The notes under the pieces: generated by a model
Seen by the model: only the letters and a program-made list of their open reading frames with translations
Databases searched by the model: none
Told to the model about the DNA's origin: nothing
From: Peptacetobacter sp.
GTDB lineage: Bacteria; Bacillota; Clostridia; Peptostreptococcales; Peptostreptococcaceae
DNA: 64,000 nucleotides
Direction of reading: 5' to 3'
NCBI RefSeq assembly: GCF_029264495.1
Contig: NZ_JARIBH010000007.1
Span: forward strand, 1,636 to 65,635
Part shown: one piece after another, positions 9,112 through 48,306 of the stretch
Layout of the letters: each line of letters starts with the position of its first letter
How positions within the stretch are numbered: the stretch's first letter is position 1
Position numbers and translations under genes: made by a program

Positions 9112-9114
9112 TGG

Positions 9115-17990: not shown

Positions 17991-18222
17991 TTATACAAGT
18001 CGTATTATAAGTCTAAGAAAAGTTATTGTCAACACAATAAGAAAAAGCAAAATAAGATTCAAAACAATATTTAAAAGAAATTAGACAATTATAATACTTG
18101 TCTAAAAAAATTACTAATTTTTATTGAAAAAGTTAATAAAAAACGATTTTTAGTAAAAAAATAAGTGAAAAAAATCGAGAAAACGTATTGCAGATTAGAC
18201 AAGTATATGATATTATACAAGT
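17991..18222. promoter_or_regulatory. udp promoter and repeated TTA(G/T)ACAAGT operator sites
   Basis: Motif copies at 17991(+), 18081(+, one mismatch), 18096(-), 18195(+), 18213(+). Promoter TTGCAG(18188)-17bp-TATTAT(18211) with TG extension. cre-like GAGAAAACGTATTGCA at 18177-18192. Confidence 0.65.
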
Positions 18223-18290
18223 GAAAGAAATACATAACATAAAAATACAAATTAATATACAACTAAAACAATAAAAAGGAGATAAGAATT

Positions 18291-19076
18291 ATGCAAAATT
18301 ATTCAGGAGAAGTAGGTTTACAATATCATTTACAAATAAGACCAGGAGATGTTGGACGTTATGTTATACTTCCAGGAGATCCAAAAAGATGTGAAAAAAT
18401 AGCAAAATATTTTGATAATCCAGTATTAGTTGCTGATAGTAGAGAATATATAACATATACAGGTTATCTAGATGGTGAAAAGGTTAGTGTTACGTCAACA
18501 GGAATAGGAGGACCTTCAGCATCAATAGCTATGGAAGAACTTGTTCTTTGTGGAGCAGATACATTTATAAGAGTTGGAACATGTGGCGGAATAGATATAG
18601 ATGTAAAAGGTGGAGATATAGTAGTTGCTACAGGTGCAATAAGAATGGAAGGAACTTCTAGAGAATACGCTCCAATAGAATTCCCAGCTGTTGCAGATTT
18701 AGATGTAACAAATGCATTAGTTACAGCTTCAAAAAGTTTAGGATATACATATCATACAGGTGTTGTTCAATGTAAAGATGCTTTCTATGGACAACATGAG
18801 CCAGAAAGAATGCCAGTTAGTTATGAGCTTTTAAATAAATGGGAAGCATGGAAAAGATTAGGATGTAAAGCATCAGAAATGGAATCAGCAGCATTATTTA
18901 TAGCAGCTAGTCATTTAGGTGTTCGTTGTGGATCTAACTTCCTAGTTGTAGGAAATCAGGAAAGAAATGCAGCTGGATTAGAAAATCCAATAGTTCATGA
19001 TACAGATAGTGCTATAAAAGTTGGGATAGAAGCATTAAGAGTATTAATAAAAGAAGATAAAGAAAAAAATAAATAA
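18291..19076 (+). CDS. udp: Uridine phosphorylase
   Basis: [32 protein letters not shown]; PNP/UDP family. Confidence 0.9.
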
Positions 19077-19108
19077 ACTGATTTTCAGTAAATAAAGGAG
19101 AGAAATTT

Positions 19109-20311
19109 ATGAAGGCGATATTGAATTTACTGGGAATAGTTGTAGTATTAGGAATACTTTGGTTAATCTCATGGAAAAGAAAAGATGTATCATTCAAAAT
19201 GCTTATAAAAGGTGTTATAGCACAATTTGTTATAGCTTTAATATTAGTAAAAGTTCCAGCAGGAAGAATGGTAGTTTCAAAAATATCAGATGTAGTTACA
19301 GGTGTTATAAACTGTGGTTCTAATGGTCTTTCATTTGTATTTGGATCATTAGCGGATAGTTCGGCATCTACAGGAATGATATTTGCTATACAGGTATTAG
19401 GGAATATAGTATTTTTATCAGCACTTGTAAGTTTACTTTATTATATAGGAGTACTTAATTTTGTAGTAAAATGGATAGGAAAAGCAGTAGGTTGGATAAT
19501 GGGAAGTTCAGAAGTTGAAACTTTCGTAGCAGTTGCTAATATGTTTTTAGGACAGACAGATAGTCCAATATTAATAAGTAAATATCTAAATAAAATGACA
19601 GATAGTGAAATAATGGTTGTTTTAGTTTCAGGAATGGGAAGTATGTCTGTTTCAATACTTGGAGGATATACAGCACTTGGAATACCAATGGAATACTTAT
19701 TAATAGCAAGCGCATTAGTTCCAATAGGAAGTATAATGATTTCAAAGATAATATTACCTCAGACAGAAACAGTAAATGAAGTAGAAGATATACAGATGGA
19801 TAATAAAGGAAATAATGCCAATGTTATCGAAGCTATATCTGAAGGTGCTGTTACAGGTATGCAGATGGCACTATCTATGGGAGCTTCATTAATAGCAATG
19901 GTAGCATTAGTAGCTTTAATAAATAAAGCATTAGGATTTATGGGAATAAGTTTAGAACAAGTATTCTCATATGTATTTGCACCATTTGGAGCACTTATGG
20001 GATTAGATCCTTCTGAAATATTACTAGAAGGTAGACTTTTAGGAAGCAAATTAGTAATAAATGAATTTATAGCATTTGAACAATTAGGAGGAATAATATC
20101 AAATATGGATCCTAGAACAGCTATAATGGCAACAATATCACTTTGTGGATTTGCTAACTTCTCAAGTTTAGGTATATGTGTATCAGGAATAGGTATACTT
20201 TGCCCAGAAAAAAAGGGAACACTTGCAAGATTAGTGTTTAGAGCAATGATAGGTGGAGTTGCAGTAAGTTTATTAAGTGCTATGATAGTAGGATTTATAA
20301 TGTTATTCTAG
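19109..20311 (+). CDS. nupC: NupC/CNT nucleoside transporter
   Basis: FVFG, NMFLGQT, NEFIAF, LCGFANFSSLGI motifs. Confidence 0.93.
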   Translation: MKAILNLLGIVVVLGILWLISWKRKDVSFKMLIKGVIAQFVIALILVKVPAGRMVVSKISDVVTGVINCGSNGLSFVFGSLADSSASTGMIFAIQVLGNIVFLSALVSLLYYIGVLNFVVKWIGKAVGWIMGSSEVETFVAVANMFLGQTDSPILISKYLNKMTDSEIMVVLVSGMGSMSVSILGGYTALGIPMEYLLIASALVPIGSIMISKIILPQTETVNEVEDIQMDNKGNNANVIEAISEGAVTGMQMALSMGASLIAMVALVALINKALGFMGISLEQVFSYVFAPFGALMGLDPSEILLEGRLLGSKLVINEFIAFEQLGGIISNMDPRTAIMATISLCGFANFSSLGICVSGIGILCPEKKGTLARLVFRAMIGGVAVSLLSAMIVGFIMLF

Positions 20312-20359
20312 TATAGAAAATAGAGTATAATATAAATAAAAAAGAAGGAGTGAATATAA

Positions 20360-21544
20360 ATGAGTAAATATAAACGTATATTTGTCGTTGTTGTAGATTC
20401 ACTTGGTATAGGGGAAATGGCCGATGCAGGAGATTATGGAGATAATGGTGCAGATACTTTAGGTCATATAGTAGAACATAGAAAGATAAATATACCAAAT
20501 CTTCATAAACTTGGAATAGCCAATTTAAAAGATTTAAAAGGATTTGAGCCAATAGAAAATCCGATGGGAAGATATATGGCCTTAAATGAAAAAAGTATAG
20601 GTAAGGATACTATGACTGGGCATTGGGAAATGATGGGATTAAATGTAAAAACTCCATTTAAAACATTTACAGACACAGGATTTCCTGAAGAACTTATACA
20701 AGAATTAGAAAAAAGATGTGGTAGAAAAATAATAGGAAATAAAAGTGCAAGTGGAACAGCTATCATAGAAGAACTTGCAGAAGAAGAAATAGAAAAAGGA
20801 CATTTAATAGTTTATACATCAGCAGATTCTGTTTTACAGATTTGTGGTAATGAAGAAACTATGGGCCTTGAAAATTTATATAAATATTGTGAAATTGCAA
20901 GAGAACTTACATTAAAAGATGAATGGAAAGTTGGGAGAGTAATAGCTAGACCATACACAGGAATGAAAAAAGGTGAGTTTAAAAGAACTTCAAATAGACA
21001 TGACTATGCACTAAAACCTTTTGGAAAGACAGTTTTAAATGAACTTAAAGATAACGGATTTGATGTAATATCTGTTGGAAAAATAAATGATATATTTGAT
21101 GGAGAAGGTATAACAGAATCAAATCGCTCAAAATCATCAGTACATGGTATGGAACAGACAATTGAAATTTCTAATAGAGATTTTAATGGATTATGCTTCG
21201 TAAACTTAGTAGATTTTGATGCACTATGGGGACATAGAAGAAATCCACAAGGATATGGAGAAGAAATAGAAAGATTTGATGAAAAATTAGGAGAATTAAT
21301 GGGACACTTAAATAAAGAAGATTTATTGATAATAACAGCAGACCATGGAAATGATCCTACTTTTAAAGGAACTGATCACACTAGAGAGAGAGTACCATTT
21401 ATATCTTATTCACCATCATTTGAAAAAGGTGGAAAAATAGAAGATACTGATACATTTGCAGTTATTGGAGCAACAATAGCAGATAACTTCAATTTAAAAA
21501 TGCCTGAAAATACTATTGGATATTCAGTATTAGAGAATCTTTAG
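20360..21544 (+). CDS. deoB: Phosphopentomutase
   Basis: [39 protein letters not shown]...HTRE. Confidence 0.97.
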
Positions 21545-21578
21545 AAATCTTAATAAAAAATAAAAAGGAGATTTTAAA

Positions 21579-22214
21579 ATGGAACAGAGTAAAATAATAA
21601 AAATAGTAGACCATACATTATTAAAACAGACATCTACATGGGAACAGATAAAACAATTATGTGATGAAGGAATGAAAAGAGATGCAGCATCTGTATGTAT
21701 ACCACCATATTTTGTAAAAGCAGCAAGAGAGTATACTGAAGGTAAATTACCAATATGTACAGTAATAGGTTTCCCAAATGGAAATATGACAACAGCAGTA
21801 AAAGTATTTGAAACAGCAGATGCAGTAAAAAATGGTGCAGATGAAATAGATATGGTAATAAACATAGGACTAGTAAAAGAAGGAAAATACGATGAAGTTC
21901 TAAAAGAAATAAATGAAATAAAAGAAGCATGTGATGGTAAATTATTAAAAGTAATAATAGAAACATGTTTACTAACAGAAGAAGAAAAAATAAAAATGTG
22001 TGAAGTAGTAACAAAATCAAATGCTGAATATATAAAAACATCAACAGGATTTTCAACAGGAGGAGCTACAATAGAAGATGTAAAACTAATGAAAGAAAAT
22101 TGTGGTCCTAATTTAAAAATAAAAGCAGCAGGTGGAATAAAAACATTTGAAGATGCGGAAGAATTTATAAAAGCTGGTGCAGATAGACTTGGAACTAGTA
22201 GATTAGTAAAATAA
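21579..22214 (+). CDS. deoC: Deoxyribose-phosphate aldolase
   Basis: VDHTLL, GADEIDMVIN, LKVIIET, Schiff-base KTSTGF, KAAGGI. Confidence 0.97.
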   Translation: MEQSKIIKIVDHTLLKQTSTWEQIKQLCDEGMKRDAASVCIPPYFVKAAREYTEGKLPICTVIGFPNGNMTTAVKVFETADAVKNGADEIDMVINIGLVKEGKYDEVLKEINEIKEACDGKLLKVIIETCLLTEEEKIKMCEVVTKSNAEYIKTSTGFSTGGATIEDVKLMKENCGPNLKIKAAGGIKTFEDAEEFIKAGADRLGTSRLVK

Positions 22215-29814: not shown

Positions 29815-30582
29815 ATGATTAGAAGAATAATAAATATAAATCAAGAAAAATGTAATGGTTGTGGACTTTGTGCAGATGCTTGCCATGAGGGTGCAATAGG
29901 TATGATAAATGGTAAAGCAGAACTTTTAAGAGATGACTATTGTGATGGACTTGGGGATTGCCTTCCTGTATGTCCAACAGGAGCAATATCTTTTGAAGAA
30001 AGAGAAGCAGCAGAATACGATGAAGAAGCTGTAAAAAAAAGAATGGAAGAAAGAAAAAGAGAAAAATCAATTATAAATAATAAACAAGGAGAAAAATTAC
30101 CTTGTGGATGTCCTGGAAGTCAAAGTAAAGCTATAAAAAGAGACAGTATACTTGAAAATAAACCTAATAGAGTAGAGCTAAATGTCAAAAGAAATGTATC
30201 TAACTTAGAAGAATCAGTTAGTGCTTTATCACAATGGCCAGTTCAAATAAAATTGGCACCTATAAATGCACCTTATTTCGATGGAGCAAAACTGCTTATA
30301 GCTGCAGATTGTACTGCTTATGCATATGCAAAATTCCATGAAGATTTTATAAAAGGTCATATAACACTAATAGGATGTCCAAAATTAGATGAAGGTGACT
30401 ACTCTGAAAAATTAACTGAGATAATAAAAAATAATGATATAAAAAGTGTGAAAATAGTAAAAATGGAAGTACCTTGTTGTAAAGGGATAGAAAGAGCTGC
30501 AATAGCTGCTATGAAAGGTAGTGGTAAATTTATACCTTGGCAGGTAGTCACTATAAGTACTGATGGATTTATAATTGAGTAA
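29815..30582 (+). CDS. 4Fe-4S dicluster (ferredoxin-like) protein associated with hcp
   Basis: CNGCGLCADAC, CDGLGDCLPVCP, CGCPGS, QWPVQ, AADC, GCPKLD, MEVPCC. Confidence 0.88.
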   Translation: MIRRIININQEKCNGCGLCADACHEGAIGMINGKAELLRDDYCDGLGDCLPVCPTGAISFEEREAAEYDEEAVKKRMEERKREKSIINNKQGEKLPCGCPGSQSKAIKRDSILENKPNRVELNVKRNVSNLEESVSALSQWPVQIKLAPINAPYFDGAKLLIAADCTAYAYAKFHEDFIKGHITLIGCPKLDEGDYSEKLTEIIKNNDIKSVKIVKMEVPCCKGIERAAIAAMKGSGKFIPWQVVTISTDGFIIE

Positions 30583-30663
30583 ATAAATAATAATTATAAA
30601 TACAAAAATAAAAATTTAAAATAAAAATATTATAAAAAATAGATAATATGATAGGAGAAAAAT

Positions 30664-32310
30664 ATGAAAACAATAGATAGTAAAATGTTTTGTTTCCAAT
30701 GTCAGGAAACAGCAGGATGTTCAGGATGTAAAATAAATGGAGTTTGTGGGAAAAAAGCATCTACAGCAAACCTTCAAGATTTATTAATATATGTTACTAA
30801 AGGAATATCTGAAGTTACAACAGAAATGAGAAAAAAAGGGAAAATAGTAGATAAGAAAATAGATAGAATGATTAGGGATTCGCTATTTACAACAATAACA
30901 AATGCAAATTTTGATGATAAAGTAATAATAAATAAAATAAAAAATATAATAGATGAAAAAGAATTATTGATATCTGAATTAGAAGATAAATCATCTCTTT
31001 CAAAATATGCTATTTATAATGAAAAAGATGATGAAAAATTAAAAATTAAATCTGAAAATGTCGGTATATTAGATACAGAAGATGAGAATATAAGAAGTCT
31101 TAGAGAACTTATAATATACGGATTAAAAGGAATGGCAGCATATTTAAAACATGCAGGTGTATTAGGATTTGAAAAAGAAGAAATAGATGCATTTTTACAG
31201 AAAACACTTAGAGATACTACAGATGATAAATTAACACAAGAAGAATTAATAAATTTAGTTATGGAAACTGGAAAATATGGTGTAGAAGCTATGGCACTTT
31301 TAGATAATGCGAATACAAGCACTTATGGAAATCCAGAAATAACAAAAGTAAACATAGGTGTTAGAAATAATCCTGCAATATTAGTATCAGGACATGATTT
31401 AAAAGATATAGAGCAGTTATTAAAACAGACTGAAGGAACAGGCGTAGATGTGTATACACATTCTGAAATGTTACCAGCAAATTACTATCCAGCATTTAAA
31501 AAATATGACCACTTTGTAGGAAACTATGGAAATGCTTGGTGGAAACAGAAAGAAGAGTTTGAATCATTTAATGGTCCAATACTTCTTACTACAAACTGTT
31601 TAGTACCACCATCAGAAAGTTATAAAGAAAGAGTATATACTACAAGTGCTGTTGGATTTGAAGGATGTAAACACATAGAAGGTGGATATGGGGAAGTAAA
31701 AGATTTTACAGAAATAATCGAGCATGCAAAAAGATGTAATCCTCCAAAAGAAATAGAAAATGGAGAAATAGTTGGTGGATTTGCACATAATCAGGTTATG
31801 CAATTAGCGGACAAAGTTGTAGATGCAGTTAAGTCTGGTGCAATCAAAAAATTTGTAGTTATGGCAGGATGTGATGGTAGACAAAAAGGAAGAAGTTATT
31901 ATACAGAATTTGCAAAAGCTCTACCAAAAGATACAGTGATACTTACAGCGGGATGTGCAAAATATAGATATAATAAATTAGACTTAGGAGATATAGGTGG
32001 AATACCGAGAGTATTAGATGCTGGACAATGTAATGATTCTTATTCACTTGCAGTAATAGCAATGAAATTACAGGAAGTATTTGGACTTGAAGATATAAAT
32101 GACCTTCCAATAGTATATAATATAGCTTGGTATGAACAAAAAGCTGTAATAGTATTATTAGCTCTTTTATATTTAGGAGTAAAAAATATACACTTAGGTC
32201 CAACTCTACCAGCATTTTTAACTGAAGATACTGCTAAATTCCTTGTAGATAATTTTGGAATAGCTGGAATAGGAACAGTAGAAGAAGATATAGAAAATTT
32301 AATAAAATAA
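30664..32310 (+). CDS. hcp: Hybrid cluster protein (hydroxylamine/NO reductase)
   Basis: [11 protein letters not shown]...GVCGK, SGHDL, YTHSEM, TTNC, AGCDG, DAGQCND, WYEQKA. Confidence 0.98.
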
Positions 32311-36834: not shown

Positions 36835-37004
36835 AAAATACGAATAAAAATTATAAAATATCGCTATAAACACCAAAAACACGAACAATAATCACTTGAA
36901 TTTTAAAAAATTTTTAATTATTTCAAAAAAAAACAAAAAATATATTGATAATATATGGATATTAATATAATATTTATATATAATAGTTCGTATAATGATA
37001 CGAA
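36835..37004. promoter_or_regulatory. PurBox-like sites upstream of the pur operon
   Basis: AAACACGAACAATA (36877-36890), AAAATACGAATAAA (36835-36848), and palindrome TTCGTAT-aatg-ATACGAA (36987-37004); CGAA cores as in Bacillus PurR boxes. Confidence 0.55.
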
Positions 37005-37050: not shown

Positions 37051-37527
37051 ATGAAAGTTGCAGTAATAATGGGATCTAAATCAGATTTTCCAAAAGTAGA
37101 AGAAGGAATAAAAGTATTAAAAGAATTTGGTATAGAAGTAGTAGTCAGAGCTTTATCTGCTCATAGAACACCGGTTCAGTTAACAGAATGTTTAGAAGGG
37201 CTAGAAGACAATACAGATGTAATAATAGCAGCAGCTGGTAAAGCAGCACATCTTCCAGGTGTTATAGCAGCACAGACATTAATTCCAGTAGTTGGGCTTC
37301 CAATAAAATCATCAACTATGGATGGACTAGATTCGCTATTATCAATAGTTCAAATGCCAAAAGGTATACCAGTAGCTACAGTAGCTATAGATGGTGGTTT
37401 AAACTCTGCATTAATGGCTATACAGATGATGTCATTAAAATATCCTAAATTAAAAGAACAGTTAAAATCATACAGAGATGAAATGGCTAAAAAAGTTCTT
37501 GAAGATGATGAAAGCTTAAATATATAA
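37051..37527 (+). CDS. purE: N5-CAIR mutase / AIR carboxylase
   Basis: MGSKSD, SAHRTP, AGKAAHLPG, QMPKGIPVATV. Confidence 0.97.
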   Translation: MKVAVIMGSKSDFPKVEEGIKVLKEFGIEVVVRALSAHRTPVQLTECLEGLEDNTDVIIAAAGKAAHLPGVIAAQTLIPVVGLPIKSSTMDGLDSLLSIVQMPKGIPVATVAIDGGLNSALMAIQMMSLKYPKLKEQLKSYRDEMAKKVLEDDESLNI

Positions 37528-37624
37528 TTAAAAAATTTAGAGTTATAAATTGAGAAATAATTAAAAATTAAAAATAGAAAGTAATAAAAATTTTAAAATA
37601 GATATTTATAAAAGGAGTGAGTGT

Positions 37625-38980
37625 ATGAGCGGAATAGTAGGTATTTACTCAGATAATAAAGTATCAAAAGAGCTATATTATGGAATTTATTCTATGCAAC
37701 ATAGAGGTCAAGAAAGTTGTGGTATGGCTGTTTACGATTCTGAGAAAAAAGAAATAGTTTATAAAAAAGAAAAAGGTTTAGTTGGAGATGCTTTTAAAGA
37801 AGACGAATTAAAAAATTATAATGGAAATCTTGGGATAGCACACGTTAGATCTTCTTCAGTTGGACACAATCACATTGCAAATACACAGCCATTCGTAGGA
37901 AGCTGTAGAAATAGAAATCTTGCAATAGTTGATAATGGAAGTTTAGTTAATGCAAATTATCTTAGAGAAACAATGGAAGAAGAAGGATTTATGTTCCAAA
38001 CTAATTCAGATGCAGAGGTTATACTTCACATTCTAGCTAGATATTATAAAGGTGATATAGTTGAAGCTGTAAAAGTTACTATGGATTATATAAAAGGGTC
38101 TTATACATTAGCTATAATATGTGATGATTCTCTAGTTGCAGTTAGAGATCCTCATGGATTTAGATCACTTCTTTTAGGTAAAAAAGGAAATGAATATTTA
38201 ATTGCTTCTGAAAATAGTGCAATAGAAATACTAGGTGGAGAAGTAATAAGAGATGTTGAACCAGGAGAAATAATAGTTATAAAAGATGGAGAATTAAAAT
38301 CTTACAATTATTCAGATACATATAAACCAGTTAAAAAAAGCTGTATATTTGAACACATATATATAGCTAGAAATGATGCAACATTAGATGATTTAAACGC
38401 ATATGAATTTAGAATAAATTGTGGTGCTTATCTTGCAAAAGATGAAGATGTAAAAGCTGATTGTGTTGTTCCAGTTCCTGATTCAGGTTGGGCAGGTGCT
38501 ATTGGTTATGCAAATGCCAGTGGCTTACAGTTAAGTGAAGGATTAGTAAAAAATAGATATGTTGGTAGAACTTTTATAAAACCAACACAAGAAGAAAGAG
38601 AAATAGCTGTTAGAATAAAATTAAACCCACTAGTACCAGCATTAAAAGGTAAATCTATAATATTAGTAGATGACTCAATTGTAAGAGGTACAACTTCTAA
38701 ACAGCTAGTTAAATCATTAAGACAGGCGGGAGTTAAGGAAGTTCATTTAAGAATAACTTCACCTCCAGTAAAATATCCTTGTTATTATGGAATAGATACA
38801 CCAACAAGAGAAAGTTTACTTGCATCAGATCATTCAGTAGAAGAAATGAGAGAATACATAGGATGTGATACATTAAAATTCATATCTTCTGAAGGAATGA
38901 AGGAAGCAGCTAAAGGAATGAATACATTCTGTAAAGCTTGTTTTGATGGAGATTATGCAGTAAAAAAAATAGATAAATAA
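37625..38980 (+). CDS. purF: Amidophosphoribosyltransferase with degenerate glutaminase domain
   Basis: QHRGQES, VPDSG, KNRYVGRTFI, VDDSIVRGTT and Fe-S cysteines present. N-terminus is MSG rather than MCG. Confidence 0.95.
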   Translation: MSGIVGIYSDNKVSKELYYGIYSMQHRGQESCGMAVYDSEKKEIVYKKEKGLVGDAFKEDELKNYNGNLGIAHVRSSSVGHNHIANTQPFVGSCRNRNLAIVDNGSLVNANYLRETMEEEGFMFQTNSDAEVILHILARYYKGDIVEAVKVTMDYIKGSYTLAIICDDSLVAVRDPHGFRSLLLGKKGNEYLIASENSAIEILGGEVIRDVEPGEIIVIKDGELKSYNYSDTYKPVKKSCIFEHIYIARNDATLDDLNAYEFRINCGAYLAKDEDVKADCVVPVPDSGWAGAIGYANASGLQLSEGLVKNRYVGRTFIKPTQEEREIAVRIKLNPLVPALKGKSIILVDDSIVRGTTSKQLVKSLRQAGVKEVHLRITSPPVKYPCYYGIDTPTRESLLASDHSVEEMREYIGCDTLKFISSEGMKEAAKGMNTFCKACFDGDYAVKKIDK

Positions 38981-39038: not shown

Positions 39039-40115
39039 ATGCTAACATACAAAGCTTCAGGAGTAAATATAGACGAAGGTAATAGAGCAGTAGACCTAAT
39101 AAAAGGAAAAATAAAAGAAACATATGATGATAATGTAATAGGAGATTTAGGTAACTTCAGTGGTCTTTATAGTATAGCTGAATTTTCAGGAATGAAAGAA
39201 CCAGTTATAATGGGAGCAACAGATGGAGTTGGAACAAAATTAAAAATAGCTCAGATGATGGACATACATCATACAGTTGGTATAGATTTAGTTGCAATGA
39301 GTGTTAATGACCTTATATGCCAAGGTGCTAGACCATTATTCTTCCTTGACTATATAGCTCTTGGAAAATTAGTTCCAGAACATATAGAAAAAATAGTTGA
39401 AGGTGTAGCGAATGGATGTAAAATGTCTGGCTGTGCATTAATCGGTGGCGAAACTGCTGAAATGCCAGGAATGTACGGAGAAGAAGATTACGACTTAGCA
39501 GGATTTGCTGTTGGTATAGCAGATAAATCAAAAGTTGTAACTGGTAAAGATGTAAAAGCTGGAGACGTTTTAGTAGGTATAACTTCAAGTGGTATACATT
39601 CAAATGGATTCTCATTTATAAGAAAAATATTCTTAGAAGAATTTAAATATGATATGGATCAATATGTTGAAGAATTAGGAATGACAGTAGGTGAAGCACT
39701 ACTTACTCCAACAAAAATATATGTTAAATTAGCACTAGATTTAATAGAAAAACACAATATAAAAGCAATATCACATATAACTGGTGGTGGTGTTATAGAA
39801 AATATAACAAGAGTTATACCAAAAGGATTAGGACTTAATATAAACACTAAATCATGGGAAAAACCACCAATATTCAAAATGATAGAAGGATTCAATGCTG
39901 TTGAGCAGAGAGAATTACACAAAAGTTTCAATATGGGTATAGGACTTGTTCTTATAGTGAACAAAGAAGATGCTCAAAGTGTTGTAGATTACATAAATGC
40001 TAGACCAAGCGATAATAAATGCTTTGTTGAAGAAAAATATGCTGACCTTATGGAAGATAATGCATATATTATAGGTGAAGTTGTAGATACTCATGAAGGA
40101 GTAGAATTATGCTAA
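39039..40115 (+). CDS. purM: Phosphoribosylformylglycinamidine cyclo-ligase
   Basis: YKASGVNID, DGVGTKL, GGETAEMPG, HSNGFS, HITGGG, FNMGIG. Confidence 0.97.
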   Translation: MLTYKASGVNIDEGNRAVDLIKGKIKETYDDNVIGDLGNFSGLYSIAEFSGMKEPVIMGATDGVGTKLKIAQMMDIHHTVGIDLVAMSVNDLICQGARPLFFLDYIALGKLVPEHIEKIVEGVANGCKMSGCALIGGETAEMPGMYGEEDYDLAGFAVGIADKSKVVTGKDVKAGDVLVGITSSGIHSNGFSFIRKIFLEEFKYDMDQYVEELGMTVGEALLTPTKIYVKLALDLIEKHNIKAISHITGGGVIENITRVIPKGLGLNINTKSWEKPPIFKMIEGFNAVEQRELHKSFNMGIGLVLIVNKEDAQSVVDYINARPSDNKCFVEEKYADLMEDNAYIIGEVVDTHEGVELC

Positions 40116-40705
40116 AAAATATTGCTGTTTTAGTATCAGGTGGAGGAACAAATCTTCAATCAATAATAGATGCAACAGAAAATGGAGAAATAAATGGTCA
40201 GATAAAAGTAGTAATTTCTAATAAAGAAAATGCGTATGGTCTTGAGAGAGCGAGAAAACATAACATAGAAGCTATTTTTGAAAATGATGAAAAAAAAGTA
40301 ATAGAGATATTAAAAGAAAAAGAAATAGATGTAATAGTAATGGCTGGATATTTAAAAATAATTAGCTCAGAATTTGTAAATGAATTTAGCAATAAAATAG
40401 TAAATATTCACCCTTCTCTAATACCTTCTTTCTGCGGAAAGGGGTATTATGGGAAAAGAGTTCATCAAGGAGTTTTAGATTATGGAGCAAAAGTTACTGG
40501 AGCTACAGTTCACTTTGTAACAGAAGGAGCAGATGAGGGTCCAATAATAATGCAAGAAGCTGTAATAGTAGAACAAAATGATGATGCAGATACTCTAGCT
40601 GCTAGAGTACTTAAAGTAGAACATAAGATACTTAAAAAAAGTGTAGCACTTTTATGTGAAGACAAAATAAAAGTTGATGGAAGGAGAGTATATATAAATG
40701 AGTAA
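40109..40705 (+). CDS. purN: Phosphoribosylglycinamide formyltransferase
   Basis: SGGGTNLQS, LAGY-like MAGY, NIHPSLIP, GATVHFV..D.GPII, EH. Confidence 0.97.
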   Translation: MLKNIAVLVSGGGTNLQSIIDATENGEINGQIKVVISNKENAYGLERARKHNIEAIFENDEKKVIEILKEKEIDVIVMAGYLKIISSEFVNEFSNKIVNIHPSLIPSFCGKGYYGKRVHQGVLDYGAKVTGATVHFVTEGADEGPIIMQEAVIVEQNDDADTLAARVLKVEHKILKKSVALLCEDKIKVDGRRVYINE

Positions 40706-42233
40706 GAGAGCTTTAATAAGCGTAACAGACAAAACAGGAGTAGTTGAATTTGCAAAAGCATTAAATGAACTTGATTTTGAAATAATTTCTACAGGTAATA
40801 CATTTAAAATCCTAAAAGAAAATGGAGTAAATGTAATGCAGGTTGAAGATGTTACTAAATTTCCAGAAATATTAGATGGTAGAGTAAAAACTTTAAATCC
40901 ATTTATACATGGTGGAATACTTTACAGAAGAGATTTAGAATCTCATGTAGAAACAGTAAAAGAACATAAAATAAATTCAATAGATCTTGTATGTGTTAAC
41001 CTTTATGATTTTGAAGGAACTTTAAAAGCAGGAAAAAGCCACGATGAAATGATAGAAAATATAGATATCGGTGGACCTTCAATGATAAGATCTGCTGCAA
41101 AAAATTATAAAGATGTTATAGTTGTTACAGACATAAAAGATTATGATCTTATAATAGAAGAGCTTAGAAAAGGTGAATTATCAGAAGAAGAGAGAAGAAA
41201 ATTAGCATATAAAGCATTTTCAACTACAGGAAGATATGACGCAATGATATCAACTTACTTTGCTGAACAAGTTGGAGAAGAATATCCAGAGTTCTTAAAT
41301 CTTACTTTCCAAAAAGAACAGACTTTAAGATATGGTGAAAATCCACATCAAAATGGAATACTATACTCTCAGCCAAATGCTAAAAATCCAATATTAAACT
41401 ATGAACAGTTAAATGGAAAAGAATTATCTTTCAACAATTTAAATGACTTACATGGATGCTTAGAAGTTATGAGAGAGTTTAAAGATAGCAAAGAAGTAGC
41501 TGCAGTAGCTATAAAACACACAAATCCATGTGGAGTTGCGTTAGGAGAAACAGCATTAGAAGCATACACAAAATGCTATGAAGCTGATAAAACTTCTATA
41601 TTCGGAGGAATAGTTGGTATAACTTCTACAGTTGATAAAGCTACAGCTGAAGAACTTCATAAAATATTCCTTGAAATAGTAGTTGCATATGATTTTACAG
41701 ATGAAGCTTTAGAAGTTTTAAGAACTAAGAAAAATCTTAGAGTATTAAAACTTGCTAAAATAGAAGATAGCAAACAAAAATATGAAATGAAATATCTTGA
41801 TGGAAAACTTTTAATTCAAGATAAAGATGTTAAATTAGCAGATAAATATGAAACAGTAACTAAATTAGAACCAACAGAAAAAGAATTAGAAGATATGAAA
41901 TTTGGTATGAAAATAGTTAAAAATATGAAATCAAATGCTATAGCAGTTGTTAAAGATGGTCAGACTCTTGCATTAGGTTGTGGTCAGACTTCAAGAATAT
42001 GGGCATTAAAAAATGCATTAGAAAATAATAAAGATGAAAAAGACTTTACAGGAGCAGTATTAGCTTCAGATGCATTCTTCCCATTTGATGATTGCGTAAC
42101 ATTGGCTCATGAATTTGGAATAAAAGCTATTGTACAACCAGGTGGATCAATAAGAGATAATGATTCAATAGAAGCTTGTGACAAATTTGATATGTCTATG
42201 GTATTTACAGGAGTAAGACACTTTAAACACTAA
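40698..42233 (+). CDS. purH: Bifunctional AICAR transformylase / IMP cyclohydrolase
   Basis: RALISVTDKTG, GRVKTL, IDIGGPSM, LRYGENPHQ, KHTNPCG, SDAFFPF, RHFKH. Confidence 0.97.
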   Translation: MSKRALISVTDKTGVVEFAKALNELDFEIISTGNTFKILKENGVNVMQVEDVTKFPEILDGRVKTLNPFIHGGILYRRDLESHVETVKEHKINSIDLVCVNLYDFEGTLKAGKSHDEMIENIDIGGPSMIRSAAKNYKDVIVVTDIKDYDLIIEELRKGELSEEERRKLAYKAFSTTGRYDAMISTYFAEQVGEEYPEFLNLTFQKEQTLRYGENPHQNGILYSQPNAKNPILNYEQLNGKELSFNNLNDLHGCLEVMREFKDSKEVAAVAIKHTNPCGVALGETALEAYTKCYEADKTSIFGGIVGITSTVDKATAEELHKIFLEIVVAYDFTDEALEVLRTKKNLRVLKLAKIEDSKQKYEMKYLDGKLLIQDKDVKLADKYETVTKLEPTEKELEDMKFGMKIVKNMKSNAIAVVKDGQTLALGCGQTSRIWALKNALENNKDEKDFTGAVLASDAFFPFDDCVTLAHEFGIKAIVQPGGSIRDNDSIEACDKFDMSMVFTGVRHFKH

Positions 42234-42247
42234 TCAATAAGGAGAGT

Positions 42248-43504
42248 ATGGATATGAAAATACTTGTTGTAGGCGGTGGCGGAAGAGAACACGCTATATG
42301 TTGGAAATTAAAACAAGAAAAAGATGTTGAAAAAATATATTGTGCTCCAGGAAATGCAGGAATAGCAGATTCAGCAGAATGTGTTGATATAAAAGATAAT
42401 GATATAGAAAACCTAGTTAAATTTGCAAAAGATAATTCTATAGACCTTACAGTTGTAGGACCAGAAGTTCCACTTGTAATGGGAATAGTAGATGCTTTTG
42501 AAAAAGAAAATTTAAGAATATTTGGTCCAAATAAACAATGCGCTACTTTTGAAGGAAGTAAAGCATTTTCTAAAGATTTTATGATAAGAAATGATATACC
42601 AACTGCTAAATATAAAGAATATACTTCTTTAGATGAAGCTATATCAGAAATAGATAGCTTTGGATATCCAGTAGTTATAAAAGCAGATGGTCTTGCTGCA
42701 GGAAAAGGTGTTGTAATACCAGAAAATAGAGAAGATGCTATAAATACTTTAAAAGAAATGATGGAAGATAGAAAATTTGGAGATGCTGGAGATAAAGTTG
42801 TAATAGAAGAATTTTTAACAGGTATAGAAACTTCAATACTAGCATTTGTAGATAACAATACTATTGTTCCTATGGAAAGTGCAAAAGACCATAAAAAAGT
42901 AAATAATGGAGAAAAAGGACTAAATACAGGTGGAATGGGAACATTCTCTCCAAGTGAATTATGGACAGAGGAACTAGCAAATGATATAAAAGTTAATGTA
43001 CTTGATAAAACTCTTAAAGGATTCCAAAATGATGGATTAGATTATAGAGGAATATTATTTGTTGGAATTATGATTACAAAAGAAGGAATAAAAGTACTTG
43101 AATACAATGTTAGATTTGGAGATCCAGAAACACAGTCAGTTCTTTTCAGATTAGAAACAGACTTAAACAAAATAATGAATGCTGTAATAGATAATAAACT
43201 TTCTGAAGTTGAGATTAAATACACAGATGAAGAAGCAATATGTGTTATGTTAACATCAGGAGGCTATCCAGAAGCCTATGAAAAAGGCAAAGAAATAAAA
43301 GGTCTTGACAAATTAGATGAAGAAATAGTAGTATTCCACAGTGGAACTAAAATGTCAGATGGTAAATTAGTTACAAACGGCGGTAGGGTTATAGGTATAA
43401 CTGCTAAGGCAAAAAATGTATCTGAAGCTGCCGATAAAGTTTATGAAAATATAAAAAGAATAAACTTTGAAGGAATGCACTACAGAACTGATATAGGTCT
43501 GTAA
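42248..43504 (+). CDS. purD: Phosphoribosylamine--glycine ligase
   Basis: GGGGREH, VVGPE, KADGLAAGKGV, NTGGMG, RFGDPE, HSGT, YRTDIG. Confidence 0.97.
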   Translation: MDMKILVVGGGGREHAICWKLKQEKDVEKIYCAPGNAGIADSAECVDIKDNDIENLVKFAKDNSIDLTVVGPEVPLVMGIVDAFEKENLRIFGPNKQCATFEGSKAFSKDFMIRNDIPTAKYKEYTSLDEAISEIDSFGYPVVIKADGLAAGKGVVIPENREDAINTLKEMMEDRKFGDAGDKVVIEEFLTGIETSILAFVDNNTIVPMESAKDHKKVNNGEKGLNTGGMGTFSPSELWTEELANDIKVNVLDKTLKGFQNDGLDYRGILFVGIMITKEGIKVLEYNVRFGDPETQSVLFRLETDLNKIMNAVIDNKLSEVEIKYTDEEAICVMLTSGGYPEAYEKGKEIKGLDKLDEEIVVFHSGTKMSDGKLVTNGGRVIGITAKAKNVSEAADKVYENIKRINFEGMHYRTDIGL

Positions 43505-43535
43505 AATTTCCGAAAAAAAATTTGGAGGAAGAGAA

Positions 43536-46500
43536 ATGGATAAAAACGTCAAAAGAGTACTAGTCGAAAAAAGAAACGGCTTTGATCTTGAAGCAAGAGC
43601 TCTTAAAAAAGACATTGTTGAAAGTCTTCATATTGACTCTGTAGATTCTTTAAGAGTACTAAATAGATATGATGTAGAAGGCATATCTGAAGAAGTTTAC
43701 CAAAATGCAGCAAACTCAATATTTTCAGAACCAAATATTGATGTTACTTATTTTGAAGAAATTCCAAATCTTAAAGATGAAAGAGTATTTGCCGTTGAAT
43801 ATCTTCCAGGACAGTATGACCAGAGAGCCGATTGGGCTGCTCAGTGTATACAGATATTAAATCAGGGAATGAGACCTGAATTAAAATCTGCTAAAGTATA
43901 TATACTTTCTGGAAATATAACAGATGAAGAGTTCGACAGAATTAAAGGGTATATAATAAACCCTGTAGACAGTAGAGAATCTGATTTGGCAAAACCAGAA
44001 ACACTTGCGATGGTTACAGAAATACCAACAGAAGTAGCTACACTAGATGGATTTATAGAACTAGATGAATCAGGACTTGAAGACTTTGTAAAATCTCAAG
44101 GATTAGCGATGACTCTAGAAGATTTAAAACATGTTCAAGTTTACTTTAGAGATGAAGAACATAGAAATCCAACTATAACAGAAATAAAAGTTTTAGATAC
44201 TTATTGGTCAGACCATTGTAGACACACTACTTTCATGACAGAACTTGAAAATGTAGAAATAGCTGAAGGTAAATATACTGATGCTATAAAAGACACTTTC
44301 GAAGACTACATGAATACTAGAAAAGAAATTTATGTAGACAGAAAAAAAGATGTTTGCTTAATGGACATAGCTACTTTAGCAATGAAAAAACTAAAGAAAG
44401 AAGGAAAATTAGCAGACCTTGATGAAAGTGAAGAAATAAATGCTTGTTCAATAAATGTAGATGTAGAAATCGACGGAAAAAATGAACAATATTTAGTAAT
44501 GTTTAAAAATGAAACACACAACCATCCGACAGAAATAGAACCATTTGGAGGAGCAGCTACTTGTTTAGGTGGAGCAATAAGAGACCCATTATCAGGAAGA
44601 TCTTATGTTTACCAAGCAATGCGTGTAACTGGTGCTGCAGATCCAAGAACTTCATTAGAAGATACACTACCAGGAAAATTAATGCAGAAAAAAATAGTTA
44701 CAGAAGCAGCAAATGGTTATAGTTCTTACGGAAACCAGATAGGTTTAACAACTGGTCAAGTAGCAGAAGTATACGATGAAGATTTCGTAGCTAAGAGAAT
44801 GGAAATAGGTGCTGTAATAGCAGCAGCTCCAAAAGAAAATGTAGTAAGAAAAAGACCAGAAGCTGGAGATGTAATAGTTTTACTTGGTGGTAAAACAGGT
44901 AGAGATGGTTGCGGTGGAGCAACTGGATCTTCAAAAGAACACAGTGAAGAATCAATAAATACTTGCTCAGCTGAAGTTCAAAAAGGTGATGCACCTAATG
45001 AAAGAAAAATCCAAAGATTCTTTAGAAATAAAGAAGCAGCTCAAATGATAAAAAGATGTAATGACTTTGGTGCTGGTGGAGTATGTGTTGCTATAGGTGA
45101 AATTGCAGAAAGTTTAGATATAAACTTAGATTTAGTTCCTAAAAAATATGATGGACTTGATGGAACAGAACTTGCAATCTCAGAATCACAAGAACGTATG
45201 GCAGTTGCAATAGATGCTGCTAATAAAGATAGATTTATAGAATTAGCAAGAATAGAAAATCTTGAAGCTACTCATGTTGCTACAGTTACTGATACAGGAT
45301 ATATGAGATTATTCTGGAATGGTAAAACAATAGTTGACTTAAAAAGAGCATTCTTAGATACTAATGGTGCTAAACAAAAAACTAATGTAGTAGTCGAAAA
45401 AGTAGATGAAGAAAATACATTCTTTGATAATACAGATATAGTAGAAGGTGCTGAAACTGTAAAAGAAAAATTCCATAAAGCATTATCAGATTTAAATGTT
45501 TGTTCTCAGAAAGGACTAGTTGAAAAATTTGATAATACTATAGGTGGTAATACAGTTGTAATGCCATTTGGTGGAAAATATCAGGCAACTCCAGAACAAG
45601 GTATGGTTGCAAAAATACCAGTACTTGGAGGAGAAACTAATACTTCTACAATAATGACTTATGGATATAATCCTAAAATAGGTAAATGGTCTCCATACCA
45701 TGGTGCACTATATGCAGTAGTTGAATCTGTTGCTAAATTAGTTGCTCTTGGAGGAAATTATGCTACTACAAGACTTACATTCCAAGAATACTTTGAAAGA
45801 CTTGGAAAATCTCCAGAAAGATGGGGTAAACCATTTGCAGCTTTACTTGGTGCATACTATGCTCAAGAACAATTTGAAATACCTGCAATAGGTGGTAAAG
45901 ACTCTATGTCAGGAACATTTAAAGATATAGATGTACCTCCAACATTAGTTTCATTTGCAGTTGATACTGTAGATGCTAAAAATGTAGTTACTTCAGAATT
46001 TAAAAAAGCTGGATCAAAAGTAGTTAAAATATCAGCAGCTACTTTAGATAATGGAGTAGTAGACTTTGATGAATTAAAGAAAAATCTTACAAAAGTAAGA
46101 GAATTAATATTAGAAGGAAAAGTGCTTTCAAGTTATGCACTTGGATTTGCTGGTGTTGGTGAAGCTATAGCTAAAATGGGATTTGGTAACCAAATAGGAT
46201 TCAAATTCAGTGAAGAAGCTGTAGAAGCTTATGAAAATACAGATGATTTATTTGCTGCAGATTATGGAACAATAATATTAGAATTAGCTGAAGATGATTT
46301 ATCATCATTAAAAGGATATAGATGCATATTACTTGGAGAAACAACAGAAACTCCTGCGATAGAATTTGCTGATGAAAAAGTATGCCTAGGTGACTTATAT
46401 AAATCACATTGTAATACTTTAGAAACTATATACCCAACAAAATCTACTGAAATAAAATCAGAAGTTAAAAATATAAGCTATGTTAGAACTGGTTCTCCAG

Positions 46501-47321
46501 CAAAATCTTCATTAAGTATAGTAAAACCTAAAATATTAATTCCAGCATTCCCTGGAACAAACTGTGAATATGATTCTGCTAGAGCTTTTGAAAGAGCTGG
46601 TGGAGAAGCTAATATAAAAGTATTCAGAAACTTATCTTATAAAGATATAGAAGAATCAATAGATATAATGGTTGAAGAAATCAAAAAATCACAGATAATA
46701 ATGCTTCCTGGTGGATTCAGTGCTGGAGATGAACCAGATGGTTCTGCTAAATTTATAGCAACAGTATTTAGAAATCCAAAAATGAAAGAAGCTGTTCATG
46801 AATTCTTAAATGAAAGAGATGGATTAATGCTAGGTATCTGTAATGGATTCCAGGCTCTTATAAAACTTGGCTTAGTTCCATATGGAAAAATAATAGAGCC
46901 TTGTGAAGAAGCTCCAACTCTTACTTACAACAATATAGGTCGTCATCAGGCCAAAGTTGTAAATACTAGAATAGCATCAAATAAATCTCCATGGCTTGCT
47001 CAGACAGAAGTTGGAGATATACACAGTATACCAATATCACATGGAGAAGGTAGATTCGTTGCAAGTGAAGAAGTAATGAAAAAACTTATAGAAAACGGAC
47101 AGATAGCTACTCAGTACGTAGACTTCAATGGAAATGCTACATATGATATAGAACACAATCCAAATGGTTCATTCTATGCAGTAGAAGGTATAACAAGTGA
47201 AGATGGTAGAGTATTTGGTAAAATGGGTCACTCAGAAAGATTAAGTGACAATGTTACTAAAAACATACCAGGAGAAAAAGATCAGAAAATATTCGAATCT
47301 GGAGTTCTTTACTTCAAATAG
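43536..47321 (+). CDS. purL: Phosphoribosylformylglycinamidine synthase (large fused type)
   Basis: WSDHCRH, ETHNHP, DFGAGG, ESQERM; intact glutaminase triad LGICNGFQ / GHSE. Confidence 0.97.
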   Translation: MDKNVKRVLVEKRNGFDLEARALKKDIVESLHIDSVDSLRVLNRYDVEGISEEVYQNAANSIFSEPNIDVTYFEEIPNLKDERVFAVEYLPGQYDQRADWAAQCIQILNQGMRPELKSAKVYILSGNITDEEFDRIKGYIINPVDSRESDLAKPETLAMVTEIPTEVATLDGFIELDESGLEDFVKSQGLAMTLEDLKHVQVYFRDEEHRNPTITEIKVLDTYWSDHCRHTTFMTELENVEIAEGKYTDAIKDTFEDYMNTRKEIYVDRKKDVCLMDIATLAMKKLKKEGKLADLDESEEINACSINVDVEIDGKNEQYLVMFKNETHNHPTEIEPFGGAATCLGGAIRDPLSGRSYVYQAMRVTGAADPRTSLEDTLPGKLMQKKIVTEAANGYSSYGNQIGLTTGQVAEVYDEDFVAKRMEIGAVIAAAPKENVVRKRPEAGDVIVLLGGKTGRDGCGGATGSSKEHSEESINTCSAEVQKGDAPNERKIQRFFRNKEAAQMIKRCNDFGAGGVCVAIGEIAESLDINLDLVPKKYDGLDGTELAISESQERMAVAIDAANKDRFIELARIENLEATHVATVTDTGYMRLFWNGKTIVDLKRAFLDTNGAKQKTNVVVEKVDEENTFFDNTDIVEGAETVKEKFHKALSDLNVCSQKGLVEKFDNTIGGNTVVMPFGGKYQATPEQGMVAKIPVLGGETNTSTIMTYGYNPKIGKWSPYHGALYAVVESVAKLVALGGNYATTRLTFQEYFERLGKSPERWGKPFAALLGAYYAQEQFEIPAIGGKDSMSGTFKDIDVPPTLVSFAVDTVDAKNVVTSEFKKAGSKVVKISAATLDNGVVDFDELKKNLTKVRELILEGKVLSSYALGFAGVGEAIAKMGFGNQIGFKFSEEAVEAYENTDDLFAADYGTIILELAEDDLSSLKGYRCILLGETTETPAIEFADEKVCLGDLYKSHCNTLETIYPTKSTEIKSEVKNISYVRTGSPAKSSLSIVKPKILIPAFPGTNCEYDSARAFERAGGEANIKVFRNLSYKDIEESIDIMVEEIKKSQIIMLPGGFSAGDEPDGSAKFIATVFRNPKMKEAVHEFLNERDGLMLGICNGFQALIKLGLVPYGKIIEPCEEAPTLTYNNIGRHQAKVVNTRIASNKSPWLAQTEVGDIHSIPISHGEGRFVASEEVMKKLIENGQIATQYVDFNGNATYDIEHNPNGSFYAVEGITSEDGRVFGKMGHSERLSDNVTKNIPGEKDQKIFESGVLYFK

Positions 47322-47571: not shown

Positions 47572-48306
47572 ATGAATATAGAAAACTTTACAAAAGAGAC
47601 TTTAGAGAGCCTTCAAAAAGAATTAAGTAGTACAATAGAAAGTATAAGAAAAATAAAATTCAACGGAAATACGCTTTATATAGTAATAGATAAAGAAGAA
47701 ATAAGTCCTGAGATAATAGATATTATGAAAACATATATTATAACAAAATCAGGAATAAGCTATGGAATAAATATAGTATTTTTAAATGAAAGTGATTTAA
47801 TTGATCTTGGTCTTAGAAAAATAGCTGAAATACAAATGTCTAAGAATTTTTCAGAAGATGATAAAGAAGAAAAAGAAAGTACTATAGAAGTAAAAAGACC
47901 TGATGAAGAAAGTTCAAAATCTGAAGAAAAAGAAGAATATAAAGAAGAAGCAGATATAAATAGAATAGATGCTATGGATGTTTGGAAAGTTATGCTAGGA
48001 AGAATACAAGAACTTATAAGTCCAGCAGTATATAAAGCATTATTTAAAGATAGCAAACAAATAGATTATAAAATGGGGATAGTTTATATATTAGTTGGTG
48101 ATACTAGAGTTGTACAGATAATGGAAACACAATATTTAAGATTTTTACAAGATGTTTCAGAAGATTTATTTGGAATTAGGTTATCATTTAGATTTGTTGT
48201 AGATGAAAAAGAAAATATAAATAAAAATGATGAAGAAGTGTATCCAGCTAGTATGAATGATTTAAATGATTTTTTTACTTTTTTAAATAATATATATAAT
48301 AAATAA
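47572..48306 (+). CDS. Hypothetical protein with a DnaA N-terminal (domain I)-like module
   Basis: Residues 134-211 (VWKVMLGRIQELISPAVYKALFK...VYILVG...METQYLRFLQ...FRFVV) follow the DnaA_N pattern. No AAA+ or HTH domain; acidic linker. Confidence 0.6.
   Translation: MNIENFTKETLESLQKELSSTIESIRKIKFNGNTLYIVIDKEEISPEIIDIMKTYIITKSGISYGINIVFLNESDLIDLGLRKIAEIQMSKNFSEDDKEEKESTIEVKRPDEESSKSEEKEEYKEEADINRIDAMDVWKVMLGRIQELISPAVYKALFKDSKQIDYKMGIVYILVGDTRVVQIMETQYLRFLQDVSEDLFGIRLSFRFVVDEKENINKNDEEVYPASMNDLNDFFTFLNNIYNK

Follow-up and report, generated by a model that had tools for sequence, protein, structure and literature searches.

Can a PurF that has lost the residue with which its family attacks glutamine still draw its nitrogen from glutamine? 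PurF, amidophosphoribosyltransferase, is the textbook glutamine amidotransferase that commits phosphoribosyl pyrophosphate (PRPP) to purine synthesis, and its canonical form carries a Cys nucleophile at the N-terminus, Cys1. The purF gene in a 64,000-nucleotide stretch of DNA from Peptacetobacter sp. (contig NZ_JARIBH010000007.1, positions 1,636 to 65,635; hereafter the window) encodes Ser in this place. The product is a PurF by homology, fold and genetic context, and it lacks the defining catalytic feature of the family, the N-terminal Cys. Comparison with its relatives indicates that it is probably an ammonia-dependent phosphoribosylamine synthase, whose N-terminal domain has been remodelled and is not decaying.

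A PurF without its Cys nucleophile

The features on which the argument turns are listed below. Names such as Cys1, Arg73, Tyr74, Thr76, His100 and Asn101 follow the numbering of mature Escherichia coli PurF, and 'residues' refers to the window protein.

37625..38980, + strand: purF, amidophosphoribosyltransferase homologue of the Bacillus subtilis type with iron–sulphur (Fe-S) cysteines, 451 amino acids, beginning MSGIVGIY
37611..37617, + strand: ribosome-binding site AAAGGAG, 7 nucleotides 5′ of the purF ATG
37628..37630, + strand: AGC, encoding Ser where canonical PurF has the N-terminal nucleophile Cys1; the gene opens ATG AGC GGA (M-S-G), one base from TGC
37841..37858, + strand: HVRSSS, residues 73–78, start of the loop closing over glutamine; Arg73 kept, Tyr74 to Ser, Thr76 to Ser
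37928..37945, + strand: VDNGSL, residues 102–107; His before the oxyanion hole to Asp, Asn101-Gly102 kept, Asn103 to Ser
38003..38020, + strand: NSDAEV; Asp127, which binds the glutamine alpha-amino group, kept, the following Thr to Ala
38156..38170, + strand: GFRSL, residues 178–182; conserved Pro to Ser
38363..38365, + strand: Ile247 for a conserved Phe (E. coli Phe259 of the mature protein, Phe260 with Met included)
38552..38584, + strand: NRYVGRTFIKP, flexible loop of the phosphoribosyltransferase (PRTase) domain; it keeps the Arg gate and the Phe and Ile of the channel
38666..38695, + strand: VDDSIVRGTT, residues 348–357, PRPP-binding motif, intact

The protein scores 472 bits against TIGR01134, the PurF equivalog family (Enzyme Commission number EC 2.4.2.14; cutoff 350), over residues 3–444. 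Its Pfam domains are GATase_7 and GATase_6 (class II amidotransferase) and Pribosyltran, and they make up the two-domain architecture of the family, an N-terminal amidotransferase of the N-terminal nucleophile (Ntn) fold followed by a C-terminal type I PRTase fold. The best sequence matches in the PDB are the B. subtilis structures 1ao0 and 1gph, and the best solved relatives also include Arabidopsis PurF and E. coli PurF. An AlphaFold model calculated with 43 homologues has a predicted local distance difference test score (pLDDT) of 84.9 and a predicted template modelling score (pTM) of 0.84, and it superposes with template modelling (TM) scores of 0.91 on 1ao0 and 0.89–0.90 on E. coli PurF. 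The sole weak stretch of the model, residues 308–321, aligns with the PRTase flexible loop VKNRYVGRTFIKP. VPDSG (residues 284–288) and the four Fe-S cysteines (C240, C386, C436 and C439) are intact.

The start codon is secure. Equivalents of the ribosome-binding site precede the start in the related loci L001, L002, L003 and L038, and no in-frame ATG, GTG or TTG occurs between the upstream stop codon and the purF ATG. A TGT (Cys) codon at 37622-37624 adjoins the ATG in frame; it falls within the spacer that follows the ribosome-binding site, has no counterpart in L003 and L038, and appears coincidental. A Cys1 hidden by an upstream start or a propeptide is ruled out, as there is no upstream start codon and the TGT is not conserved.

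A sequence-only reading made earlier on this DNA had reported Ser at the nucleophile position, HVRSSS, VDNGSL and a change of RP to RS, together with intact VPDSG and VDDSIVRGTT motifs and Fe-S cysteines, and all are present where it placed them. It had also argued that several changes together speak against a sequencing error. They recur in seven further, independent assemblies and in contigs of three metagenome runs from cetaceans (X1–X3): the latter are about 97% identical to the window over 37500-38300 and leave the codons for Ser1, HVRSSS and VDNGSL unchanged. A TGC codon at 37628, the variant that would have undone this reading, occurs in none of the independent reads or contigs. Error in sequencing or assembly is ruled out by this agreement. 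The broader proposal that an error or a mis-called start conceals Cys1 could appeal to the in-frame TGT, and it has a practically negligible probability given the position of this codon in the spacer, its absence in L003 and L038, the lack of an upstream start and the concordance of the assemblies and runs. The three cetacean-run contigs are also the nearest public reads. The nearest genome is that of Peptacetobacter sp. AB845, at 94% protein identity, and the window's own species is unrepresented at or above this 94% level in the genome collection searched.

To place these substitutions, the protein was compared with 70 related Cys1 PurFs from Peptostreptococcales and with 133 Cys1-type cluster representatives. 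The nucleophile position is Cys in every sequence of both sets (70/70 and 133/133), whereas in the window it is Ser (AGC). Tyr74 is Tyr in 70/70 related and 129/133 representative sequences, and the Pro of GFRPL is Pro in 70/70 and 132/133. At positions 100 and 101 the related set has His in 69/70 and Asn in 69/70, respectively, and Asp at either position is found in none of the 133 representatives. Other Peptostreptococcaceae, including Clostridioides difficile, Romboutsia, Paraclostridium, Terrisporobacter and Intestinibacter, read MCG, HVRYST, xHNGNL and GFRPL, occasional single-residue variants aside. The oxyanion hole and the residues that bind glutamine are retained in the window protein, which holds N104, G105, R75 and D129 (Asn101, Gly102, Arg73 and Asp127).

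The changes are concentrated in one domain. When conserved positions are defined as those at least 93% conserved in the 70 Cys1 relatives, the group of PurFs that share Ser1 with the window (the Ser1 clade) has changed 12 of the 87 that fall in the glutaminase domain and just 1 of the 98 in the PRTase domain (Fisher p = 8e-4). The 13 changes are C1S, L20I, M48K, Y74S, T76S, G79H/S/T, S80N, H100D/N, N103S/C/A, A166S, V170A, P189S and F259I, and in 9 of the 13 the new state is invariant across the clade. Such invariance fits a shift to new constraints, not a loss of constraint. The changed residues lie mostly in or near what we take, from E. coli structures, to be the glutamine site: position 1, the loop 73–84 that closes over glutamine and the oxyanion-hole strand. 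Tyr74 is presumably the residue that couples the two active sites, and the roles given here to Thr76 and to loop 73–84 are likewise assumed from those structures. Arg26, Gly27, Arg73, Gly102 and Asp127 are kept throughout the clade, as is Asn101 in all members except one.

An old and shared replacement

The Ser1 clade comprises eight sequences, the window and seven from independent assemblies, drawn from Peptacetobacter and a sister group. The closest public proteins and genomes are those of Peptacetobacter sp. AB845 (94% identity) and P. hominis (89%), and the Peptacetobacter relatives all read MSG, HVRSSS, VDNGSL and GFRSL. Three sister sequences, one from a Peptostreptococcaceae metagenome-assembled genome (MAG) and two from metagenome contigs, have MSG, HVRSSS or HVRSAS, and CDNGAL or VNDGSL; a search with one of them (P0091) found no further members of this subclade beyond P0073, P0091 and P0093. 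The member of the clade that departs at the oxyanion hole, L081, has Asn100-Asp101, that is, Asp for Asn101. Ser1 is encoded by AGC in six members and by AGT in two.

The sequence-only reading had proposed an alignment with orthologues to map the Ser1 clade, and the mapping bears it out. In neighbour-joining trees, the only kind calculated, the clade is monophyletic in 50/50 bootstraps with full-length proteins and in 49/50 with the PRTase domain alone, so that convergence within the N-terminal domain does not explain the grouping. Divergence of the PRTase domain within the clade reaches 23–28%, similar to that between genera in the family. At all Ser1 loci with sequence 5′ of purF, purE stands directly before it with no purC between. 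As the sequences are monophyletic and share this arrangement, the replacement of Cys1 by Ser in the window's clade is, judged from trees and gene order, one old event.

Selection on the two domains

The same reading had called for ratios of nonsynonymous to synonymous substitution (dN/dS) per domain, and these reveal purifying selection in both. Pairwise Nei–Gojobori estimates, which are rough as dS is high (0.7–1.5), are as follows.

Within Peptacetobacter (Ser1): glutaminase domain 0.04–0.12, PRTase domain 0.06–0.085
Comparable Cys1 pairs: glutaminase domain 0.02–0.09, PRTase domain 0.03–0.12

Both domains are, on these estimates, under strong purifying selection, and the constraint on the N-terminal domain matches that in Cys1 enzymes. 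Amino-acid divergence gives a similar picture. The ratio of glutaminase to PRTase divergence is 0.9–1.04 in Cys1 pairs and 0.8–1.0 among the window and the three closest Peptacetobacter genomes; it rises to ∼1.2–1.5 against the more distant member L083 and to 1.2–1.6 between the two Ser1 subclades. The raised values indicate a moderate burst of change, not drift. Relaxed selection with decay of the domain was considered and is ruled out by glutaminase-domain dN/dS equal to that of Cys1 enzymes and by a divergence ratio that is raised, to 1.2–1.6 against ∼1.0, between the two subclades.

Recurrent loss of Cys1 in other lineages

A search of 1.84 billion cluster representatives placed the window protein in a wider context. 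Among the 150 relatives listed, 133 have Cys1 and approximately 9–11 have an intact N-terminus but no Cys. Most of these Cys-less representatives have their closest PRTase-domain neighbours among Cys1 proteins, an indication that they arose separately. The purF gene occupies its canonical operon position in all Cys-less lineages examined.

One of the representatives led to the Tissierellaceae/Tissierella group, in which all 18 genome loci (L167–L177, L179–L184 and L186) begin (M/L)SG, many with a TTG start, and have the oxyanion Asn replaced by Asp (xHDG). The purF match lies at ∼8001–9341 in most, flanked by purE and purM in 17 of the 18 (purL-purE-purF-purM...); the contig of the eighteenth ends inside purF. 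In the 17 sequences that are full-length, divergence of the N-terminal domain exceeds that of the PRTase domain by a factor of only 1.15. Filifactor alocis and F. villosus (L068:5223-6554 and L075:10001-11332) start TTG-GCN, giving Ala1, and read GNVRYAM, VNDGAL and VYLAR. A Ser1 protein of the same lineage (P0121) is 81% identical to these Ala1 enzymes, and Ser and Ala interchange within the lineage. Anaerosphaera multitolerans (L072:8381-9721) starts ATG-GGT, giving Gly1, and its sister A. aminiphila (L080) keeps Cys.

Secondary substitutions recur in these proteins. Asn101 is Asn in 133/133 Cys1 representatives and Asp in most Cys-less lineages; counting both positions, Asp stands at 100 or 101 in ∼7 of 12 Cys-less lineages. 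Phe259 is Phe in 70/70 related and 125/133 representative Cys1 sequences; every member of the window's clade has Ile, and Filifactor is among the lineages with Leu. The loss of Cys1 from operon-encoded PurFs is, on this phylogenetic evidence, an event that has arisen independently several times.

Further sequences lie at the margins of this pattern. Three contigs from 'Alistipes' MAGs (L187, L188 and L190) include a pur operon with a PurF that opens MSVLGVYG and has GHVLY, in which Leu replaces Arg73; these contigs may represent another Cys-less lineage or may be mis-binned. The PurF of a Filifactoraceae MAG (L059:4069-5397) keeps Cys1 and has HVQYST, with Gln for Arg73, and ANNGSL, with Asn for His and Ser for Asn103; this could be an intermediate or weakened glutamine site. 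P0212, P0248 and P0211 are Cys-less representatives with N-terminal extensions resembling that of B. subtilis (…EE|GG…, …EE|SG…), and without Cys they presumably cannot self-process the propeptide.

A probable ammonia-dependent enzyme

With Ser in place of Cys1, Ser for Tyr74 and Asp for the His beside the oxyanion hole, the N-terminal domain would have lost its glutaminase chemistry. Phosphoribosylamine would then be made from PRPP and free ammonia (NH3), delivered to the intact PRTase site either by the interdomain channel, which is retained, or by a side gate. The domain itself would be kept because it contributes to the channel, to the enclosure of the active site and to the oligomer, and selection would have reshaped its glutamine pocket, not let it decay. 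The loss of glutamine use, the use of NH3 and its route are what we infer as most likely from the comparisons above. That the gene is functional is indicated by its operon position, low dN/dS and confident PurF-like model.

Biochemical precedent is available. In E. coli, the C1S and C1A variants of PurF had no detectable glutamine-dependent activity and kept NH3-dependent activity (Mei & Zalkin 1989, as summarised in PMC3261824), in agreement with the statement in the sequence-only reading that Cys1 mutants lose glutamine and retain ammonia. PurF accepts ambient NH3 as substrate, and a part in purine synthesis in vivo, dependent on the ammonium concentration, has been attributed to its NH3-dependent activity (PMC12017579). 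In simulations of E. coli PurF, NH3 exits by a side channel after a flip of Phe260, gated by Arg333 (PMC12017579); Phe260 of that numbering is the residue changed to Ile in the window, and Arg333 is kept.

The sequence-only reading had called the glutaminase apparently inactivated and the enzyme probably ammonia-only. The second part is supported by the comparisons, which make it probable; for the first, 'remodelled' is a better word than 'inactivated', as the domain is as constrained as in Cys1 enzymes and keeps Arg73, Asp127 and Asn101-Gly102. Ammonia-only function gains from the other lineages, as Ala and Gly at position 1 cannot act as nucleophiles, and the window PurF would be one case of a recurrent pattern. 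It gains too from L081, a member of the window's own clade whose oxyanion hole is lost through Asp for Asn101. The same reading had found such an enzyme plausible in an amino-acid-fermenting gut anaerobe, and the source is indeed a gut anaerobe of the Peptacetobacter-like Peptostreptococcaceae. Peptostreptococcales and Tissierellales are peptide- and amino-acid-fermenting groups in which high ammonia is expected. Taxonomy, taken from record titles and general knowledge, suggests that most Cys-less lineages fall within these two orders, in keeping with high ammonia.

Several observations weigh against ammonia dependence. The window's subclade keeps Arg26, Gly27, Arg73, Asn101, Gly102 and Asp127, and Thr76 to Ser is a conservative substitution; the pocket may still accept glutamine or a similar ligand. 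Ser1 is strictly conserved, in 8/8 members of the window's clade and 18/18 Tissierellaceae, despite synonymous AGC/AGT changes, and a role for its hydroxyl is possible. Some enzymes of the Ntn superfamily use Ser as nucleophile, penicillin G acylase among them. The high dS noted above tempers the estimates of selection. A second purF was sought, as the sequence-only reading had proposed: there is none in the window, and a genome scan that included the conserved peptide FIKPTQEE, and that could reveal only copies of the Peptostreptococcales type, gave one such locus in each of three Peptacetobacter genomes. That part of the proposal is answered for copies of this type in those three genomes; a distant paralogue, or a canonical copy elsewhere in the genome, is possible. 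Finally, purC was found neither in the window nor within ∼10 kb at any of the Cys-less loci. In C. difficile it lies between purE and purF (L004:9291-9986). A genome scan for purC gave no Peptacetobacter locus among the matches listed, and a protein search gave listed matches all of at least 83% identity.

The conservation of Ser1 invites the view that it still serves as the N-terminal nucleophile, in the manner of Ser-type Ntn hydrolases and activated with the help of the new Asp100, the enzyme remaining glutamine-dependent or hydrolysing a related amide. The invariance of Ser across synonymous codons in the clade and in 18 Tissierellaceae genomes would follow, as would the retention of Arg73, Asn101, Gly102 and Asp127 and the strong purifying selection on the glutaminase domain. 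The initiator Met that precedes Ser in the window protein is expected to be removed. The Ntn superfamily does include nucleophiles other than Cys, such as a catalytic Thr, while its class II amidotransferase family is listed with Cys as the catalytic residue (PMC9140057). Set against this are the laboratory C1S enzyme, for which PMC3261824 reports no detectable glutamine activity, the loss of Tyr74, and the oxyanion Asn to Asp change in L081 and all Tissierellaceae sequences. Ser and Ala interchange in Filifactor, and the prevalence of Ser has a mutational explanation, as a single base change from Cys yields, among small residues, only Ser and Gly. Moreover, the Ala1 and Gly1 lineages have no possible nucleophile yet share some of the secondary changes, which makes a simple loss of glutaminase likelier than a retuned Ser nucleophile. 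A catalytic Ser1 is therefore unlikely.

The retained glutamine-binding residues, the conserved new states and a selection on the domain as strong as in active enzymes would also suit a ligand sensor, in which the N-terminal domain binds glutamine or another amino acid unhydrolysed and tunes an NH3-dependent PRTase allosterically, or a docking site for a separate glutaminase that supplies NH3. This is improbable: no candidate partner gene is conserved beside the operon, where the open reading frame 3′ of purL is fast-evolving and without family match, Tyr74, which we assume to be the coupling residue, is replaced, and the older Cys-less lineages have lost Arg73. It is very improbable that the protein is dead or redundant, with phosphoribosylamine supplied by a second canonical PurF or some other enzyme, or formed without an enzyme from ribose-5-phosphate and ammonia. 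The reach of the second-purF search (the window, and Peptostreptococcales-type copies in three genomes) and the missing purC near the operon leave some room for it; the intact PRPP motif, flexible loop and Fe-S cysteines, a dN/dS of ∼0.05–0.1 for each domain across divergence at the level of genera, the canonical place of purF in the operons of all Cys-less lineages examined and the single Peptostreptococcales-type purF of each of the three Peptacetobacter genomes all speak against it.

A more specific version of ammonia dependence can be put forward tentatively, and it is possible though doubtful. The former glutamine pocket might have become an ammonium-capture site, in which Ser1 and the new Asp at 100 or 101 bind and deprotonate NH4+, and NH3 passes down the retained channel, aided by the replacement of the gating Phe259; such enzymes would form a distinct class, evolved repeatedly in high-ammonia anaerobes. 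The idea derives from the occurrence of Asp at these positions in ∼7/12 Cys-less lineages and 0/133 Cys1 representatives. Asp is the most conservative replacement for Asn, and the pattern could be tolerated drift after the loss.

Comparison with known systems

The window PurF resembles the canonical B. subtilis-type enzyme (1AO0, 1GPH) in fold, PRPP motif, flexible loop, the four Fe-S cysteines, Arg73, Asn101, Gly102, Asp127 and pur-operon position. It differs in having Ser for Cys1, Tyr74, Thr76, Asn103 and Pro189, Asp for the pre-oxyanion His and Ile for Phe259, and in lacking a propeptide. With the laboratory E. coli mutants of Cys1 to Ser or Ala, for which PMC3261824 gives NH3-only behaviour, it shares the change at position 1, and that behaviour is the prediction for the window protein; unlike them the window enzyme is natural and fixed over genus-level divergence, and its glutaminase domain carries roughly twelve additional conserved changes. 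A natural Ser for the nucleophile Cys is also present in the archaeal PurF homologue Mlab_0150 (PMC3261824), which together with these mutants is the closest precedent. Mlab_0150, however, is a recent second copy beside a canonical PurF, judged by the authors of that study not to be the real purF (PMC3261824), whereas the Ser form of the window is the operon purF and the only copy detected.

The PurFs of Tissierellaceae, Filifactor and A. multitolerans have likewise lost Cys1 while remaining in the main pur operon with a conserved N-terminal domain. Some Cys-less PurFs and the window have secondary changes in common, namely Asp at 100 or 101, substitution of His100, and Leu or Ile for Phe259. 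Their origins are independent, and most have replaced Asn101 by Asp and kept Tyr74, whereas the window's clade has kept Asn101, acquired Asp100 and lost Tyr74. Ammonia-only relatives of glutamine-using enzymes exist elsewhere, as in AsnA versus AsnB and the single-domain NH3-dependent NadE, and beta-lactam synthetase has an inactive Ntn domain. These resemble the window PurF in the use of free ammonia or in a retained inactive Ntn domain, and they belong to different families. To our knowledge no natural ammonia-only form of bacterial PurF is known, and a literature search found no description of an operon-encoded bacterial PurF without Cys1.

The pur operon and its surroundings

The purF gene is encoded with the de novo purine genes, second in the order purE-purF-purM-purN-purH-purD-purL, and every other gene of the operon scores above its family cutoff. 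PurL (43536-47321) keeps Cys1102 in GICNGFQ and His1232 and Glu1234 in GHSE, the Cys-His-Glu triad that the sequence-only reading had set beside the altered PurF. The remaining features of the operon region are given below.

37051..37527, + strand: purE (TIGR01162), directly 5′ of purF, with no purC in the interval 37528-37624
39039..47321, + strand: purM, purN, purH, purD and purL, all above family cutoffs
36877-36889 (+): AAACACGAACAAT, PurBox-like sequence 5′ of purE, candidate PurR operator by consensus match
36983-36994 (-): TATACGAACTAT, second PurBox-like sequence 5′ of purE, candidate PurR operator by consensus match
47572-48306: acidic open reading frame of 244 amino acids after purL, without Pfam or NCBIfam match, only in Peptacetobacter loci

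The consensus behind the matches of AAACACGAACAAT and TATACGAACTAT is the one we assume for the PurBox. Rfam models detected no riboswitch 5′ of the pur operon and no purine or ZTP riboswitch anywhere in the window. The open reading frame after purL diverges fast, from 76% down to 44% identity; it has no family match, and no partner gene conserved beside the operon was found.

Elsewhere in the window, a nucleoside salvage and catabolism cluster at 17221-22214 encodes uridine phosphorylase, a NupC-family transporter, phosphopentomutase and deoxyribose-phosphate aldolase, with a divergent GntR-type regulator alongside, so that the organism can also scavenge nucleosides. A ferredoxin-like protein and a hybrid-cluster protein (hydroxylamine reductase) are encoded at 29815-32310, ∼5 kb 5′ of the pur operon, and no link to purF was seen. 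Genes for a dipeptide permease, a C-S lyase and several peptidases are also present in the window.

Implications

Databases label the Cys-less proteins as ordinary EC 2.4.2.14. If ammonia dependence holds for whole lineages of gut, oral and digester anaerobes, metabolic models would give these organisms an incorrect nitrogen source, and their purine N9 would have a different origin. Glutamine-analogue inhibitors that target Cys1 would then be expected not to act on Cys-less PurF. The repeated losses would also provide a natural experiment on which residues are kept and which are changed once the glutaminase has gone, with a bearing on ammonia channels and interdomain coupling.

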